Shown here piece by piece: positions 3,623-9,690 of a stretch of DNA of 18,204 bases. The notes beneath the pieces are model-generated. The model saw only the letters and a program-made list of their open reading frames with translations. It was not told the DNA's origin and searched no databases. The position numbers were made by a program, and so were the translations under genes. The DNA is from a virus. Its lineage: Duplodnaviria > Heunggongvirae > Uroviricota > Caudoviricetes. The stretch's first letter is position 1. Each line of letters opens with the position of its first letter. Location of the stretch: the IMG/VR virus record IMGVR_UViG_2737471864_000007, positions 1 through 18,204 of that record; one strand, given 5' to 3'.

Positions 3623-3848
3623 TACTTAAAATCCTCTGTAGAATAATGGAATCACTTTTCTTGATGACAGGAGTAACTAACTCCCCAACTAACTCTGCGT
3701 CCTCACGCACTCGCCATAGTCGACCTTGTTTCATTGCCGGTGGACAAAATAAATTCTGCTTAGCATAACGACGCAATGTGGACACACTTGGAGGATTACT
3801 CCTAAATTTTTCCGCAGCCCATTCCTCAAGTGTCAGCATTTGAAGCAT
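3603..3848 (-). CDS. xis: Excisionase (Xis, lambda-like)
   Basis: LTLEEWAAEKF...VSTLRRYAKQNLFCPPAMKQGRLWRV parallels lambda Xis (LTLQEWNARQ...TVRRWVRE..IFPPPVKDGREY). Start taken at the ATG at 3848 (GAGGT about 10 nt upstream); alternative in-frame starts at 3863 and 3839. Overlaps int start. Confidence 0.75.
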   Translation of the reverse strand: MLQMLTLEEWAAEKFRSNPPSVSTLRRYAKQNLFCPPAMKQGRLWRVREDAELVGELVTPVIKKSDSIILQRILSNGSQTT

Positions 3849-5457: not shown

Positions 5458-5820
5458 TTAACGACCTGCTGCGCGGAGTTTTCCGTCAGGCTCACCGGCA
5501 AGAGTCAGTAATTGTCCCTGGTCTTCCTGCAGAATAGTCAGGCGACCACCGCGATTGACATACATCGGCGTTTCTGTGGTGTCTTCTTCGGAAATTTTCC
5601 CGCGGTTAGTCGGGCGAACATATGAGAGTTTGTGTTTGATTTTCACACGGTTCTCATCAAATGGTTCGATTTCCAGGTTGAGTGAGACCTTACCTTTGGT
5701 TTTCGTGTTCATCACACCGGAAGCGACTTCACTGAGAACTGCGCCGATTTTGGTTTCAAATACGCCGCCGTCCAGCTCCCCGATAAATGCCTGCACATCA
5801 GTACTGCGTTCGCTAGCCAT
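5458..5820 (-). CDS. yfdP: YfdP-like hypothetical protein
   Basis: 120 aa starting MASERSTDVQAFIGELDGG at the ATG at 5820, with AGGAG 8 nt upstream. The track's 226-aa form extends into the GC-rich ORF-free segment with an Arg/Cys/Pro-rich, non-protein-like translation, so the extension is rejected. Confidence 0.65.
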   Translation of the reverse strand: MASERSTDVQAFIGELDGGVFETKIGAVLSEVASGVMNTKTKGKVSLNLEIEPFDENRVKIKHKLSYVRPTNRGKISEEDTTETPMYVNRGGRLTILQEDQGQLLTLAGEPDGKLRAAGR

Positions 5821-5870
5821 TTTGCTGCTCCTCATCATATCGACCCTGCAAGGCCGATTAGTTTCTCCAC

Positions 5871-6074
5871 AAAACAGAGAAGAACACCTGCGGTGGCAGC
5901 CGCCCGGATGGATTGAGTTATGAGCCCGTCGTCCGGTGATGTTCTTCTCTGTTTTGTAAAAAGGACGGTACCAGCCGGAAGCAAGGGTACAAGCTGGTAC
6001 CGCCAGGACTACACACAGCATAAAGTTGTGGTGCCGGGTGCCTCCCGGTGCCTGGCGAAGGTTGCACACCAGGC
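5871..6074. other. GC-rich ORF-free segment with multiple perfect inverted repeats; candidate structured RNA or MITE-like element
   Basis: 16-bp perfect inverted repeat AAAACAGAGAAGAACA (5871-5886) / TGTTCTTCTCTGTTTT (5940-5955) around a 53-nt GC-rich spacer. 9-bp perfect stem GGTACCAGC (5967-5975) / GCTGGTACC (5993-6001). 6-bp stem GCCTGG (6050-6055) / CCAGGC (6069-6074). No convincing ORF in any frame. Confidence 0.3.
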
Positions 6075-6219
6075 GGGTGGGTATCCACAGAAGGTCGACT
6101 GTCAGCCTCAACCTTAACCCGCGTGCGCTGAGCCGCATTCACCACAACGCTAAGGATTCTCTCTGGTTGAAAATACTTAGCTGTTATGTGCCTGCTTTTA
6201 GCCACATCAGGCGAGGTGG

Positions 6220-6272
6220 ATCTGGTTATTCCCCAACAATAAGGATTCGGTTAATCTGGTTATCCCCAACAA
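6220..6272 (+). repeat. Two direct repeats ATCTGGTTAT(T)CCCCAACAA, 34 bp apart, just upstream of the ORF at 6289
   Basis: Copies at 6220-6239 and 6254-6272. The associated motif TAAGGATTC also occurs twice (6151-6159, 6240-6248), and CTGGTTGA at 6163-6170 is a partial third copy. Confidence 0.6.
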
Positions 6273-6288
6273 CGCAAAAGGAAAAGAA

Positions 6289-6723
6289 ATGTCCGGTAAT
6301 ATCTATACGCTGTACAAATCCCACTGTGAAAATGTTGGAAAGTATCGGGGCATTGAAATCAGTGGGGTAGTGTCATCAGTCGAAATAAGCAAAGTTGAAT
6401 CAAGAGCAACATTACTTACTCTTCTGGACCTTGTCTTACATGAGCACCGGAAGAAATTCGGCACTCCCTATAATCAGTTGAATGGGAAAAAGGCTCTGGT
6501 TCACCTTATTCTGATGAAGCATCACTGGATGCCAAAACAGATTAATGAGATGAAATTTGATGAACTTCTTCTTTCAATTCAGGATGAACTCACGCTTGAT
6601 AAAATAAGCGTAACCGCCCAGAAATTTTTAGATTATCGAGACTGGAGATCACAAATTCATCACTTTGATGATTTTGACGAAAATGAATGGGATCCTAATT
6701 TGTCTGCACAATATCTAAAGTAG
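6289..6723 (+). CDS. Hypothetical protein, 144 aa, acidic C-terminus; AT-rich gene oriented against the leftward early operon
   Basis: ATG at 6289 with AAGGA 7 nt upstream. Protein-like translation with no recognisable motif. 3' end overlaps the convergent small ORF 6695-6901 by 29 nt. Confidence 0.6.
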   Translation: MSGNIYTLYKSHCENVGKYRGIEISGVVSSVEISKVESRATLLTLLDLVLHEHRKKFGTPYNQLNGKKALVHLILMKHHWMPKQINEMKFDELLLSIQDELTLDKISVTAQKFLDYRDWRSQIHHFDDFDENEWDPNLSAQYLK

Positions 6724-6901
6724 CATCCTGTGATAAAACTGTGATTTCCTGATCCAGTTTTTTTAAGGAGCCTATTGTTTCCTGTCGATAAGACAGCACT
6801 TCACGAAGCTGGTTTATAGCTGCCAGCTTCTTTGTCATCCACTCGTAAATTTCCTCATCTGTGTAGCCAGGCGCGACGATTTTTGGTTCTGTTTTGTGCA
6901 T
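6695..6901 (-). CDS. Small hypothetical protein, 68 aa; first gene of the putative leftward (pL-like) operon
   Basis: ATG at 6901 preceded by a strong GAGGAGGTG Shine-Dalgarno 5-6 nt upstream; the track's longer form starts at a TTG. Helical-looking, not Arg-rich, so not an obvious N homolog. Confidence 0.55.
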   Translation of the reverse strand: MHKTEPKIVAPGYTDEEIYEWMTKKLAAINQLREVLSYRQETIGSLKKLDQEITVLSQDATLDIVQTN

Positions 6902-6947
6902 TTCACACCTCCTCAAGTTATCAGTTACTTGTTGATGGGGACCAGAT

Positions 6948-6984: not shown

Positions 6985-7058
6985 TTGCTAACGAATCATC
7001 CTGGACTTCATATGCCCCAGGCGGCTACTTCGTGGGCGTCCTGCCTGTTCGTTGTTTT

Positions 7059-7120
7059 AACACCTTTAAGTTGTAATTTAGTTGTGGCTTTGAATATTGT
7101 CAACAACTTTATGTGGTTTG
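7059..7120. promoter_or_regulatory. OL-like operator/promoter region
   Basis: Block AACACCTTTAAGTTGTAATTTAGTTGTGG (7059-7087) plus ACAACTTTATGT (7104-7115). Both recur in the cI-cro intergenic region; contains AAGTTGT/ACAACTT inverted half-sites. Confidence 0.5.
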
Positions 7121-7166
7121 AACGAGTAGCCAAGGAGTGCAAGGATTATCAAAAAAAGGAGGTTGT

Positions 7167-8057
7167 ATGGAAGACGCGCTTTACGCTTTTAATTACACAC
7201 AGAACCGGGACAAGTTATTTGCTAACTTGATTAGCATCATTGATGGAATCATTGCAGATGGAGTTGTCCGTGAAGAGGAGGTTCTTTACTTAGATACATG
7301 GTTACTTGAAGCAAAGCAGATTATCAATAATGGAGTTATAAAAAGTCTATCAGCACGGGTGTCGGATATTCTTGCGGATGGAATAATCACATCAGAAGAA
7401 CGTGATGACCTTAAAAATAGCCTTCTCCAAATACAGAGGGAAATTCTTGATATCCCTGAAATTGATTTTTACTCCAAGGATGTAGATGTCCATTTACTTA
7501 ATGGACTATGTAAAGGATTAATTGCTGATCGGAACTTAACTCAAGAAGAAATAAGATATCTTAATTGGTGGCTTGAGCAAAATGGAGCTTTGAAGAACAA
7601 CTACCCAGGAAAAAAACTTTATGCACTTGTAAAGGAAATTCTTAAAGATGGGGTTATTACTGAAGATGAGAGTTTAACTCTACATAAGGCATTAGTAGAC
7701 TTCACAGGATGTGACTTGGAAAGTGGGGTGGTGGATGGTTTGGCGACCAGGCTGCCTATTGATGTAGGGGCTTCGATAGAGTTAGAGGGTAAAACCTATT
7801 GTCTTACAGGCACTTTTGTTGCAGGAAAGAGAGCCGTAGTTGAAAATTTGATTAAAAATGCTGGTGGGAACATCAGTAGTGGAATTACTCAAAAGTTGGA
7901 TTTTTTAGTAATTGGGACGCTTTCCTCCCGTGATTGGAAATTCTCAAGTCACGGAAGGAAGATCGAAAAAGCTATATCTTATAGGGATGATAATGGTGCA
8001 AAACTTAAAATTATTTCTGAAGAAATGCTTTTCGATGCATTACCAAGTTCGCGATGA
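7167..8057 (+). CDS. TerB-like helical-repeat protein with C-terminal BRCT domain; AT-rich cargo gene between OL and cI
   Basis: ATG at 7167 with AGGAGG 4 nt upstream; the track's form starts at a GTG at 7137. Four repeats of the pattern (A/K)DG.I(T/R).EE...L (IADGVVREEEVLYL, LADGIITSEERDDL, IADRNLTQEEIRYL, LKDGVITEDESLTL). C-terminal GKTYCLTGTF...GGNISSGITQKLDFLVIG...GRKIEKA...GAKLKIISEEMLFDAL resembles the LigA-type BRCT fold. Convergent 18-nt overlap with the cI 3' end. Confidence 0.75.
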   Translation: MEDALYAFNYTQNRDKLFANLISIIDGIIADGVVREEEVLYLDTWLLEAKQIINNGVIKSLSARVSDILADGIITSEERDDLKNSLLQIQREILDIPEIDFYSKDVDVHLLNGLCKGLIADRNLTQEEIRYLNWWLEQNGALKNNYPGKKLYALVKEILKDGVITEDESLTLHKALVDFTGCDLESGVVDGLATRLPIDVGASIELEGKTYCLTGTFVAGKRAVVENLIKNAGGNISSGITQKLDFLVIGTLSSRDWKFSSHGRKIEKAISYRDDNGAKLKIISEEMLFDALPSSR

Positions 8058-8726
8058 CCAGAATACCCTACCTATAACATGAATTCTGGCTCGTCTATCT
8101 TCAAAGGTGAGTATTTCATCTGGGTACTCATCTTTGTTGAAGCTTCTAAGAATCAAGCCACCGTCAGGTAAGTTGATAAGTATTTTAACCCTTAGCAATA
8201 CACCATCTCGTACGGCATAAAGATCGCCATCACGAATAGGAACGGTTTGAGAAATATCAACGGCAACAAGATCTCCATTATTGAGAACCGGTAATAAACT
8301 GTTCCCCCATATTTTTACGATCTTGGCATTAGATGCACATACGCCAGATTTTCTCAAATCTGCTCTTCTTAACGGAAACCAGTCAATAGCTGATTCAACT
8401 ATTTCAGCCAGACATCCGTTACCTGCCGATAACTCGACATCTAAAACAGGAATGTTTACGAAAATATCGGGGTCTAATGCGGTGCTTTCTGCTTCTTTTA
8501 CAACAAGATCAGGTATGGATGCGTTATCTTCAATACCAAGTTGTAACCACTTTTGTGATACACCTAAAACTTTTGCAATTTCTTTAATTTTGCGCGGTTG
8601 TAGAGTTTCGCCATTCTCTATTTTGGCTACAGATTGTTGTGAAAGTCCAATTTTTTCAGCTAGTTGAGCTTGGCTCATGCCAGCTTTCTCTCTACCTATC
8701 TTTAATCGTTCTGCCAGTGTTTTCAC
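8040..8726 (-). CDS. cI: CI-like prophage repressor (XRE-type HTH + LexA/S24 peptidase-like autocleavage domain)
   Basis: 228 aa. N-terminal HTH (LAERLKIGREKAGMSQAQLAEKIGLSQQSVAKIENGE) and C-terminal S24-like region (GNSLLP...). GTG start at 8726 with a GAGAGGGA SD-like sequence. Divergent from cro. Confidence 0.85.
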   Translation of the reverse strand: MKTLAERLKIGREKAGMSQAQLAEKIGLSQQSVAKIENGETLQPRKIKEIAKVLGVSQKWLQLGIEDNASIPDLVVKEAESTALDPDIFVNIPVLDVELSAGNGCLAEIVESAIDWFPLRRADLRKSGVCASNAKIVKIWGNSLLPVLNNGDLVAVDISQTVPIRDGDLYAVRDGVLLRVKILINLPDGGLILRSFNKDEYPDEILTFEDRRARIHVIGRVFWSSRTW

Positions 8727-9132: not shown

Positions 9133-9690
9133 GTGGGTAAGCATCACTGGAAAATAGAAAAACAGCCTGAGTGGTACGTGAAAGCTGTCAGAAAAACTAT
9201 CGCGGCGTTGCCGGGTGGTTACGCTGAAGCCGCTGACTGGCTGGATGTAACAGAGAACGCTTTATTCAACCGCCTTCGTGCAGATGGCGATCAGATTTTT
9301 CCGCTGGGATGGGCAATGGTTTTACAGCGTGCTGGTGGCACTCACTTCATTGCTGATGCTGTGGCGCAGTCTGCAAATGGCGTATTTGTGTCTCTTCCTG
9401 ACGTCGAGGATGTGGACAACGCCGATATTAACCAGCGTCTGCTGGAAGTCATTGAACAGATCGGCAGTTATTCAAAACAGATTCGTTCAGCAATCGAAGA
9501 CGGTGTAGTGGAACCGCATGAGAAGACAGCAATTAACGACGAGCTGTATCTCTCAATTTCGAAGCTGCAGGAGCATGCAGCACTGGTCTACAAAATCTTT
9601 TGCATTTCAGAAAGTAATGACGCCCGCGAGTGTGCAGCTCCGGGCGTCGTGGCGTCGATTGCTTCTGGTTGTGGAGAAACTAACGCATGA
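9133..9690 (+). CDS. CII-like regulatory protein (YdaT-like family)
   Basis: 185 aa from the GTG at 9133 (AAGGAG 6 nt upstream). The track's longer form starts inside cro and is rejected. Position after cro matches the Rac-type racR/ydaS/ydaT arrangement as I recall it; family assignment tentative. Confidence 0.6.

Follow-up and report, generated by a model that had tools for sequence, protein, structure and literature searches.

What is encoded in the gap between the immunity region and the yfdP gene of an SfV/ST64B/e14-type lambdoid prophage? The question is raised by a window of 18,204 nucleotides (nt), that is, the whole stretch of DNA analyzed here (IMG/VR virus record IMGVR_UViG_2737471864_000007, Caudoviricetes), which is part of such a prophage. 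In the 467-nt gap between yfdP and a gene of the ECs1072 family, flanked by the immunity region on one side and by yfdP on the other, the initial annotation had pointed to a GC-rich segment at 5840-6210, free of open reading frames (ORFs) and containing several perfect inverted repeats, and had proposed either a structured non-coding RNA of unassigned strand or a miniature inverted-repeat transposable element (MITE). We conclude that the early-left operon probably has a leader RNA of about 470 nt, non-coding, extensively folded, and read from the minus strand, and that this segment is its core; the leader consists of two separable modules, an STnc100-like small-RNA cassette (module A, 6181-5958) and a three-way-junction hairpin (hairpin B, 5957-5869). 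The features of the leader and its surroundings are listed in Table 1.

The three stems named by the initial annotation are all present. The largest, described as 16-base-pair (bp) arms (5871-5886 and 5940-5955) around a 53-nt spacer, sits inside a perfect inverted repeat of 18 bp (5869-5886 and 5940-5957), which can be extended to 25 nt at 88%; the second is perfect over 10 bp (5966-5975 and 5993-6002), and the third pairs GCCTGG at 6050-6055 with CCAGGC at 6069-6074. The GC fraction is indeed elevated, 0.52-0.58 over 5700-6199 compared with 0.35-0.47 farther out on both sides. The density of pairing, suspected to be unexpected for neutral DNA, exceeds chance on the minus strand, where none of 200 shuffles folded as well as 5950-6185 (-97.1 kcal/mol, z = -3.84) and none of another 200 as well as 5822-5965 (-59.5 kcal/mol, z = -4.81); on the plus strand 5950-6185 has z = -1.90 and is equaled by 6 of 200 shuffles. 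The terminator stem of module A is followed by a tract of five U residues on the minus strand only, and the non-Watson-Crick cells of hairpin B, tallied over its alignment in the minus-strand sense, comprise about 43 G-U against 7 A-C. Since the fold z-scores, the U5 tract, the G-U excess, and the strand of the Rfam match described below agree, we place the leader on the minus strand, in the sense of yfdP. The structured RNA is thus supported, and covariation, the terminator, the G-U excess, and the similarity to STnc100 now give it a strand, boundaries, and relatives.

Hairpin B, which comprises the large inverted repeat and its spacer, was aligned in 25 non-redundant copies from about ten genera (alignment A1), collected from the upstream regions of yfdP homologues and from IMG/VR contigs. 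Mangrovibacter, Enterobacter, Atlantibacter, Leclercia, Superficieibacter, Phytobacter, Kosakonia, and Scandinavium are represented, as well as phages of E. coli and Shigella. A long basal stem (P1) leads to two arms, P2 (CCGGA...UCCGG with an inner GGG-CUCAUAA-C(C/U)C) and P3 (GCGG-loop-CCGC). In A1, 97.6% of the cells are paired, and compensatory changes are found in 13 of the 35 pairs, compared with 5.8 +/- 1.5 in shuffled alignments (0 of 500 reached the observed number) and with 1-5 when the partners are slid. P1 has neither indels nor length variation; about 18 pairs belong to the stem proper, and RNAalifold extends it to 23 pairs, 98.8% paired. The five additional basal pairs join the U-tract of the terminator to GGAGA, in columns that never vary, so no covariation signal is possible there. 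While the stems covary, the bases of the junction and the loops are near-invariant (CAUCACC, GACGGGCUCAUAACCCAAUCC, GCAGGUG), and the junction together with one loop (CUCAUAACCCAAUCC) hardly changes at all. No credible match to Rfam 15 was found for hairpin B: in the window there is only a chance-level hit to a plant microRNA precursor (21.3 bits, cut-off 80), and the copies from five other genera matched no family at E <= 1, riboswitch and other cis-regulatory families included. The failure of the initial annotation to place the segment in a known RNA family therefore stands for the large hairpin, but not for module A, which has a sub-threshold relative in STnc100 and DicF. A promoter inside hairpin B was considered and rejected, as no acceptable -10/-35 pair was seen by eye or in a scan.

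Module A begins with a basal hairpin, whose position is occupied by AGAGCACUG...CAGUGCUCU in other genera, and continues with a tRNA-shaped domain, a single-stranded linker, and an intrinsic terminator. In a permissive scan, the Rfam model of STnc100 (RF02076) matches 6178..5955 on the minus strand end to end (model positions 1-206 of 206, 42.4 bits, E = 8.5e-8). The domain is closed by a 9-bp helix, GUUGUGGUG/CACCACAAC, and then contains AAU, a small hairpin, variable arms, an 8-bp hairpin that includes the third stem mentioned above, and a 5-bp hairpin, CCGGG-AGGCA-CCCGG, which abuts the closing helix at its 3' strand and is stacked on it. When minimum-energy folds of 13 leader-type and canonical STnc100 sequences were computed independently, they converged on one architecture: a closing helix of 7-10 bp, AAU, a small hairpin, variable arms, a hairpin of 8-9 bp, and a 5-bp hairpin with an AGGCA loop on the closing 3' strand. 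In the alignment of these sequences (A2), the 19 placeable pairs of P1, P2, and P5 are 93.4% paired, and their covariation score is 0.418; shuffles give 0.150, and none of 500 scored as high. For instance, CCGGG/CCCGG is replaced by GGUGG/CCACC in three loci. The STnc100 core strings GGUGAAU and CACCGGGAGGCACCCGGCACCA are invariant in 13 of 13 sequences.

The linker is conserved as GCUGUGUGUAGUC across genera and, by analogy with DicF, is a candidate for both a seed and an RNase E entry site. The stem of the terminator that follows, which includes the second stem above, varies elsewhere, with pairing and a tract of 5-8 U residues retained (GCGGCGUC/GGGCGCCGC, GCGGCACC/GGUGCCGC, GCGGCAUC/GAUGCCGC). 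A consensus terminator scan missed it, its limit for the loop being 8 nt and the loop here 17 nt. An ops/RfaH site in the ascending strand GGCGGUACCAGC was also considered and dropped, as only the first 7 of 12 positions fit the ops consensus. We read module A as a member of a wider STnc100/PasD/DicF kind, which stands at the position of DicF and carries a different seed stretch.

The tRNA-shaped domain occupies a slot with conserved flanks, ..GUGCUCUnUCC followed by GUUGUGG ... CCACAAC and then by ..GCUGUGUGUAGUC..GGCGG-terminator. The bodies between these flanks differ widely: a 124-nt STnc100-like domain, a 128-nt variant, a 59-nt mini-domain, a 106-nt body, and tRNAs are found. In Phytobacter prophages (fetched loci L020 and L025) the slot holds a 77-nt tRNA, which ARAGORN calls tRNA-Ile(aat) and to which the Rfam tRNA model gives 52.8 bits in L020; in L141, an IMG/VR phage, it holds a tRNA with an insertion of about 50 nt (43.9 bits on the same model). 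The anticodon of the Phytobacter ursingii tRNA, AAU, is unusual. The slot thus behaves as a cassette with interchangeable bodies. Neither ARAGORN nor the Rfam tRNA model finds a tRNA or tmRNA in the window. The domain resembles tRNA genes in its acceptor-like closing helix of 7-9 bp, its 2-3-nt joint, and the T-arm-like hairpin of 5 bp on the 3' strand; unlike a tRNA, it is 124 nt long, has a 5-nt T-like loop (AGGCA) and no anticodon arm, and is recognized neither by ARAGORN nor by Rfam.

We propose the following order of events. The leader would be transcribed leftward from the repressor-controlled early-left promoter (7103-7075) towards yfdP-yfdQ-yfdR-xis-int, by a polymerase that candidate signals just after the promoter would make termination-resistant. 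Stops at the terminator would release RNAs from module A, which RNase III, acting at the basal hairpin, and RNase E, acting at the linker, would trim to species of about 190 nt and about 60 nt; RNase P may act at the acceptor-like helix. The linker would then base-pair as a seed with host or phage mRNAs. The same terminator would hold back the downstream operon until the polymerase is termination-resistant, and hairpin B would form in read-through transcripts only.

Several observations weigh against this interpretation. The STnc100 score of module A lies below the curated gathering cut-off of 47 bits, and a scan of the window at gathering thresholds returned no match; in fact all leader-type copies, including those of SfV, ST64B, phiES15, and e14, fall below the cut-off, whereas canonical copies score 56-179 bits. 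The DicF model (RF00039) gives only 15.9 bits (E = 1.2, cut-off 48) at 5963-6017 of the minus strand. The proposed biogenesis of the small RNAs is drawn wholly by analogy, and the basal hairpin, with about 12 bp interrupted by bulges, is rather short as an RNase III substrate. The linker has no convincing target within the phage by RNAduplex, which was run on both strands and returned only the trivial antisense match and weaker, unremarkable ones. No promoter was seen directly upstream of the cassette, by eye or by scan, and the leader must therefore be reached by transcription antisense through the ECs1072-family gene. As for hairpin B, it is absent from the relatives phiES15, L018, L010, and Qin, and its apical loops, which hardly vary, point to a more specific role than that of a site for RNase III. 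Literature searches on ECs1072, ymfH, and yfdP turned up no transcript data for the locus, and the main text of a paper on RNase III targets does not mention the homologous e14 locus.

Hairpin B is most likely, by a slight edge, an element for RNase III processing combined with stabilization of the 5' end or control of translation of the first gene. Its basal helix is of the length cut by RNase III (about 20 bp or more), with 23 pairs by RNAalifold and about 18 in the stem proper, and it abuts the U-tract of the terminator and is followed by the UGUGGAGAA(A)CUAAC motif, the small hairpin, and the ribosome-binding site of the first gene. A different role is a tentative possibility: the hairpin could be a sensor or binding platform in the 5' untranslated region, recognizing a ligand, a phage or host protein, or the polymerase, and controlling translation or elongation of the early-left operon. 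A three-way junction whose junction and loop bases hardly vary across genera while its stems covary would suit such a role, as would its place immediately upstream of the Shine-Dalgarno-like GGAG, which RNAalifold pairs with the U-tract. The hairpin also precedes first genes of different families and therefore serves the operon rather than one gene. Yet it matches no riboswitch or cis-regulatory family of Rfam, the real ribosome-binding site of yfdP lies 25-35 nt farther on behind another hairpin, there is no sequence similarity to the HK022 put RNAs, and the hairpin stands downstream, not upstream, of the terminator that it would need to overcome.

The remaining explanations are less likely. 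That the tRNA-shaped domain is a decayed phage tRNA gene, functionless and kept only because it is young, would account for the real tRNA in the same slot of Phytobacter prophages and L141, for the broken T-like hairpin of the e14 copy in K-12, and for the diversity of the slot bodies. We consider it unlikely, since leader-type copies differ from canonical STnc100 copies, which have another genomic position in other phages, by compensatory changes that keep the helices intact, the core strings do not vary, and the PasD relatives are abundant Hfq-bound RNAs (Pearl Mizrahi et al. 2021; Zhu et al. 2026). A protein-coding segment, either an N-terminal extension of YfdP (the ORF of 226 amino acids (aa) at 5458-6138) or a small protein of the YmfH type, is very unlikely. 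The description of the segment as ORF-free is not literally correct, as it is crossed by four mechanical ORFs (226, 95, 65, and 114 aa) and bears gene calls made by annotators: a long ORF in phage Kati, a "frameshifted hypothetical protein" of the Prokaryotic Genome Annotation Pipeline (PGAP), and, on the homologous DNA of K-12, the coding sequence ymfH. The frame that leads up to the yfdP ATG is open for 106 codons in the window, in SfV, and in other close relatives from E. coli, and for 126 in ST64B, and the variable sites among close relatives (7, 10, and 18 at the three codon positions) lean slightly to the third. The frames, however, are not conserved. Where other genera share the hairpin, the frame is interrupted by a stop 1-67 codons upstream of the start; of 21 unique close homologues, 11 have a single-base insertion at one site and 7 at another; 63 of 500 shuffles of the GC-rich stretch reach a stop-free run of 105 aa; the substitutions preserve RNA pairing, G-U pairs included; and the first genes preceded by the leader are unrelated to one another (kil in phiES15, xisE in e14, and several more in IMG/VR contigs). 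Least probable of all is the MITE, a mobile unit of 85-95 bp with arms of 16-18 bp as its terminal inverted repeats. Its perfect 18-bp arms do look like such repeats, and related leaders vary in having or lacking the unit, but in complete E. coli genomes it occurs at 3655 places against 3627 for the whole 467-nt leader (median 1, maximum 5 per genome). In the copies read it always stands between the terminator U-tract and the GGAG motif with no visible flanking duplication, and no copy with target-site duplications was seen in an unrelated, non-prophage context. The changes in its arms include strand-specific G-U pairs, and the internal stems P2 and P3 covary as well.

Downstream of hairpin B, the pairing of the small hairpin is kept in relatives although its stem differs (CGGCGGUGGCAGCCGCC, CGCCCCUACGGGGGC, GCGCCUGUGCAGAGGCGC, and others), and its loop is usually (U/G)(U/G)GCAG. 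In other genera, a related unit that combines AUGGAGAACCAAC with a GUGCAG-loop hairpin is found again within the left operon. A leader peptide, or a split ribosome-binding site, formed by GGAG and the small hairpin with an AUG at 5838 was rejected, as this AUG is not conserved outside E. coli-type copies. The motif following hairpin B has a second copy as a 15-mer on the right side of the immunity region, where the CII-like gene ends; the ATG of the ymfM homologue follows 2 nt after this copy. The two copies flank the immunity region divergently, and both are kept in many IMG/VR contigs and in prophages of other genera.

Between the promoter and module A there are candidates for antitermination signals. 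In ST64B, the interval from cI to yfdP is free of annotated genes and contains the promoter, the 64-nt element, a first terminator, the cassette ending in a terminator of its own, and hairpin B. With two terminators to be passed before the first gene is reached, processive antitermination is implied. The operator-like repeats ACAACTT/AAGTTGT at the early-left promoter are found also in the right operator region. A 14-mer of the 64-nt element occurs once each in 65 of the 162 fetched loci, is upstream of the leader in the copies read, and is unique in the window; we regard the element as a candidate antitermination signal, a lead only. It shares short strings with HK022 putL/putR (CGAAC.GGC ... 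CAGGAUGA), a relation that is not established, single-sequence folds being uninformative. A small hairpin follows the element and is itself followed by the boxA-like AGCUCUUUAACAA. For 5822-6200, homology to HK022 put was examined and rejected, as BLAST gave only chance matches of 10 nt and the region lies about 900-1200 nt from the promoter. Among the neighboring genes, PHROG matches identify repressor-, Cro-, and CII-like genes, and none is to a family annotated as an N-type antiterminator.

Table 1. Features of the leader RNA, its promoter region, and neighboring genes. Positions refer to the window unless another sequence is named; L numbers denote fetched loci.
Feature	Position	Strand	Remarks
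LexA/CI-type repressor gene	8043-8726	-	
Early-left (PL-like) promoter, TTGACA-17-TAAATT	7075..7103	-	flanked by ACAACTT/AAGTTGT operator-like repeats
Promoter-proximal 64-nt RNA element, AACGAACAGGCAGGACGCC...CAGGAUGAUUCGUU	6990..7053	-	conserved
boxA-like AGCUCUUUAACAA	6947..6959	-	12/13 to the rrn-type boxA consensus; no other match in the window
Small PHROG-1744 gene	6698-6904	-	
ECs1072-family gene	6289-6723	+	runs against the left operon
Conserved upstream segment with the string CCACCUCGCCUGAUGUGGCUAAAAGCAGGCAC	6183..6288	-	abuts the start of the divergent ECs1072-family gene
Basal hairpin, GCUAAG...CUUAGC	6149..6181	-	5' of the tRNA-shaped domain; from fold and flank comparison
tRNA-shaped STnc100-like domain	6025..6148	-	124 nt; Rfam match, shared fold, covariation
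Single-stranded linker, UUUAUGCUGUGUGUAGUCCU	6005..6024	-	at the position of the 5' (seed) region of DicF
Intrinsic terminator, 12-bp stem GGCGGUACCAGC/GCUGGUACCGUC	5958..6004	-	17-nt loop, then C + UUUUU; from sequence and fold
Hairpin B (16-bp repeat of the initial annotation plus spacer)	5869..5957	-	alignment A1, RNAalifold
Shine-Dalgarno-like motif, UGUGGAGAAACUAAU	5857..5871	-	consensus UGUGGAGAAACUAAC; conserved
15-mer TGTGGAGAAACTAAC, left copy	5871-5857	-	1 mismatch; after hairpin B
15-mer TGTGGAGAAACTAAC, right copy	9670-9684	+	exact
Small hairpin, AUCGGCCU-UGCA-GGGUCGAU	5839..5858	-	between the motif and the yfdP ribosome-binding site
yfdP Shine-Dalgarno sequence GAGGAG and ATG	5818..5832	-	start at 5820
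yfdP	5461-5820	-	first gene of the operon served by the leader
ymfH (b1142)	E. coli K-12 MG1655 1201069-1201380 = L163 2570-2881	-	coding sequence drawn over the e14 leader
Slot tRNAs	L020 2722-2800, L025 1186-1264 (Phytobacter ursingii); L141 1077-1203	-	same acceptor sequence and flanks

The segment just upstream of module A may be the promoter of the divergent ECs1072-family gene. It contains two direct repeats 34 bp apart (GGTGGATCTGGTTATTCCC and GGTTAATCTGGTTATCCCC) and, on the plus strand, the conserved string GTGCCTGCTTTTAGCCACATCAGGCGAGGTGG. In phiES15, Mangrovibacter, Atlantibacter, Kosakonia, and Providencia this string stands next to divergent genes that belong to other families, and there it reads like a -35/-10 pair (GGTGGTATACT and GGTGGTATCTT). 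In the window yfdQ and yfdR follow on the minus strand, and the excisionase and integrase genes are placed downstream in the left operon by synteny with a 98.9%-identical prophage. The plus strand carries the genes of a Cro-like protein, a CII-like protein (YmfL), and the ymfM homologue. Between the repressor gene and the early-left promoter, a 306-aa plus-strand gene (7137-8057; PHROG 3989, with weak partial ligase-like and regulator-like matches) overlaps the 3' end of the repressor gene by 18 bp; it is possibly a moron or defence gene.

The 95-nt hairpin unit was found in 2806 of 5426 complete E. coli genomes; strain CFT073 is one carrier of hairpin B. The e14 prophage of K-12 has the whole leader, that is, the slot domain, a DicF-like terminator, hairpin B, and the motif, upstream of xisE. 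The ymfH gene, as well as "hypothetical protein" and "frameshifted" calls in other records, is probably mis-annotated RNA, and the "frameshifted hypothetical protein" calls of PGAP in other strains probably stem from the e14-type leader and the ymfH call. In the CPS-53 prophage of K-12 (L003 7248-7604), a run of GATTTTGACG-type direct repeats stands upstream of yfdP in place of the entire leader, and yfdP of K-12 therefore lacks this control region. DicF controls cell division and metabolism; a small RNA at its position with a different seed would be carried by the same 2806 of 5426 genomes, where the records read either leave it unannotated or list a hypothetical protein. Hairpin B itself is a new, well-supported conserved RNA structure at the entry to the excision and integration operon, where prophage induction could be controlled. 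Should hairpin B gate the early-left operon, with its recombination, excision, and integration functions, it would do so in prophages of about half of the complete E. coli genomes searched.

The proposed leader can be compared with several known systems. The C4 RNA of P1 and P7 and the CI RNA of P4 are immunity RNAs embedded in leaders and cut out by RNase P. The likeness is that of a small structured RNA inside an early-operon leader, upstream of genes that it could limit, and by analogy it too may be released by processing; unlike these RNAs, that of the window showed no complementarity to its own transcript, and there is no sequence relation. Rfam C4 matches were obtained in SfV and in the IMG/VR contig L105, and none in the window. 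In the right operons of these two (SfV, L001 8986-9174; L105, 7039-7227), genes of isrK and the C4 antisense RNA are adjacent at the Rfam threshold, and isrK is present in the stretch of ST64B fetched (L159 5231-5307); the gathering-threshold scan of the window found neither. The leader of the lambda N gene has a hairpin sensitive to RNase III. Like it, hairpin B is a long hairpin just upstream of the first early-left gene, and the length of its basal helix, about two turns, is conserved; unlike it, hairpin B has a conserved three-way-junction top, and the sequences of the two are unrelated.

STnc100 and PasD form one lineage of prophage small RNAs, PasD being located near Q (Zhu, Shabalina and Storz, bioRxiv 10.64898/2026.05.13.724894), and PasD is a discrete Hfq-associated RNA of about 200 nt (Pearl Mizrahi et al. 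2021). Module A resembles them in matching the model over its whole length, in the core strings, in the compensated helices, and in the 3' terminator. It differs in its position, the early-left leader upstream of yfdP instead of the late region, and in its closing helix, GUUGUGGUG instead of CAUGGUG. For instance, the canonical STnc100 of H-19B is situated just downstream of the gene for the Stx B subunit, in the late region, and most of the 367 phage records that match canonical STnc100 are Stx-converting phages.

With DicF of the K-12 Qin prophage, the window shares both position, the leader or early part of a repressor-controlled early operon of a lambdoid prophage, and layout: a basal hairpin, a structured domain closed by GUUGUGG../..CAAC, a single-stranded stretch that forms the 5' part of DicF, and a GGCGGUAnCAG... 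terminator with U5 at the 3' end. In the dicBF operon this order is represented by the basal hairpin AAGCGCAUGG..CCGUGCGCUU, the domain closed by GUUGUGGC../..GCUGCAAC, and DicF with its GGCGGUAUCAG... terminator. Linker and terminator of the window (6024-5958) align with 47 of the 58 positions of DicF, and the DicF model gives 22.7-28.4 bits on relatives in three other genera, compared with 76.7 bits for genuine DicF. Two DicF species are made from the operon transcript, one of 190 nt with an RNase III-dependent 5' end and one of 53 nt that needs RNase E (Ragunathan et al., bioRxiv 10.1101/2023.04.14.536235, confirming Faubladier et al. 1990). In the window, the piece from the start of P1 to the end of the U-tract (G6148 to U5958) measures 191 nt. 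In Qin, 190 nt counted back from the 3' end of DicF (our own count on the Qin sequence) lead into the 3' half of the basal hairpin, and the long DicF species therefore consists of the slot domain plus DicF. The Qin domain just upstream of dicF would then be the body of the 190-nt species. Between dicF and dicB there is a further, unannotated STnc100-like domain (L164 2433-2642, plus strand, 34.4 bits, E = 1.8e-5), which carries GAUGUGGUGAAUGCGGCUGAGCGC ... CACCUGGAGGCACCAGGCACUGCAUC. The window differs from Qin in the slot body, in what follows the terminator (hairpin B in the window, the STnc100-like domain in Qin), and in the seed stretch, which has insertions and substitutions, so that targeting of ftsZ or manX should not be assumed.

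Taken further, these comparisons lead to a speculative and rather doubtful proposal, namely, that the long form of DicF belongs with STnc100 and PasD to a single tRNA-derived family in a swappable leader slot with exchanged cargo, and that hairpin B is a new cis-regulatory class gating the early-left operon. In such a scheme the acceptor- and T-arm-like scaffold would recruit tRNA-processing enzymes, and the cargo would include real tRNAs. In any case, the shared leader architecture links STnc100, PasD, and DicF, which are listed separately, and it suggests a tRNA-like scaffold with biogenesis by RNase P, RNase III, and RNase E.

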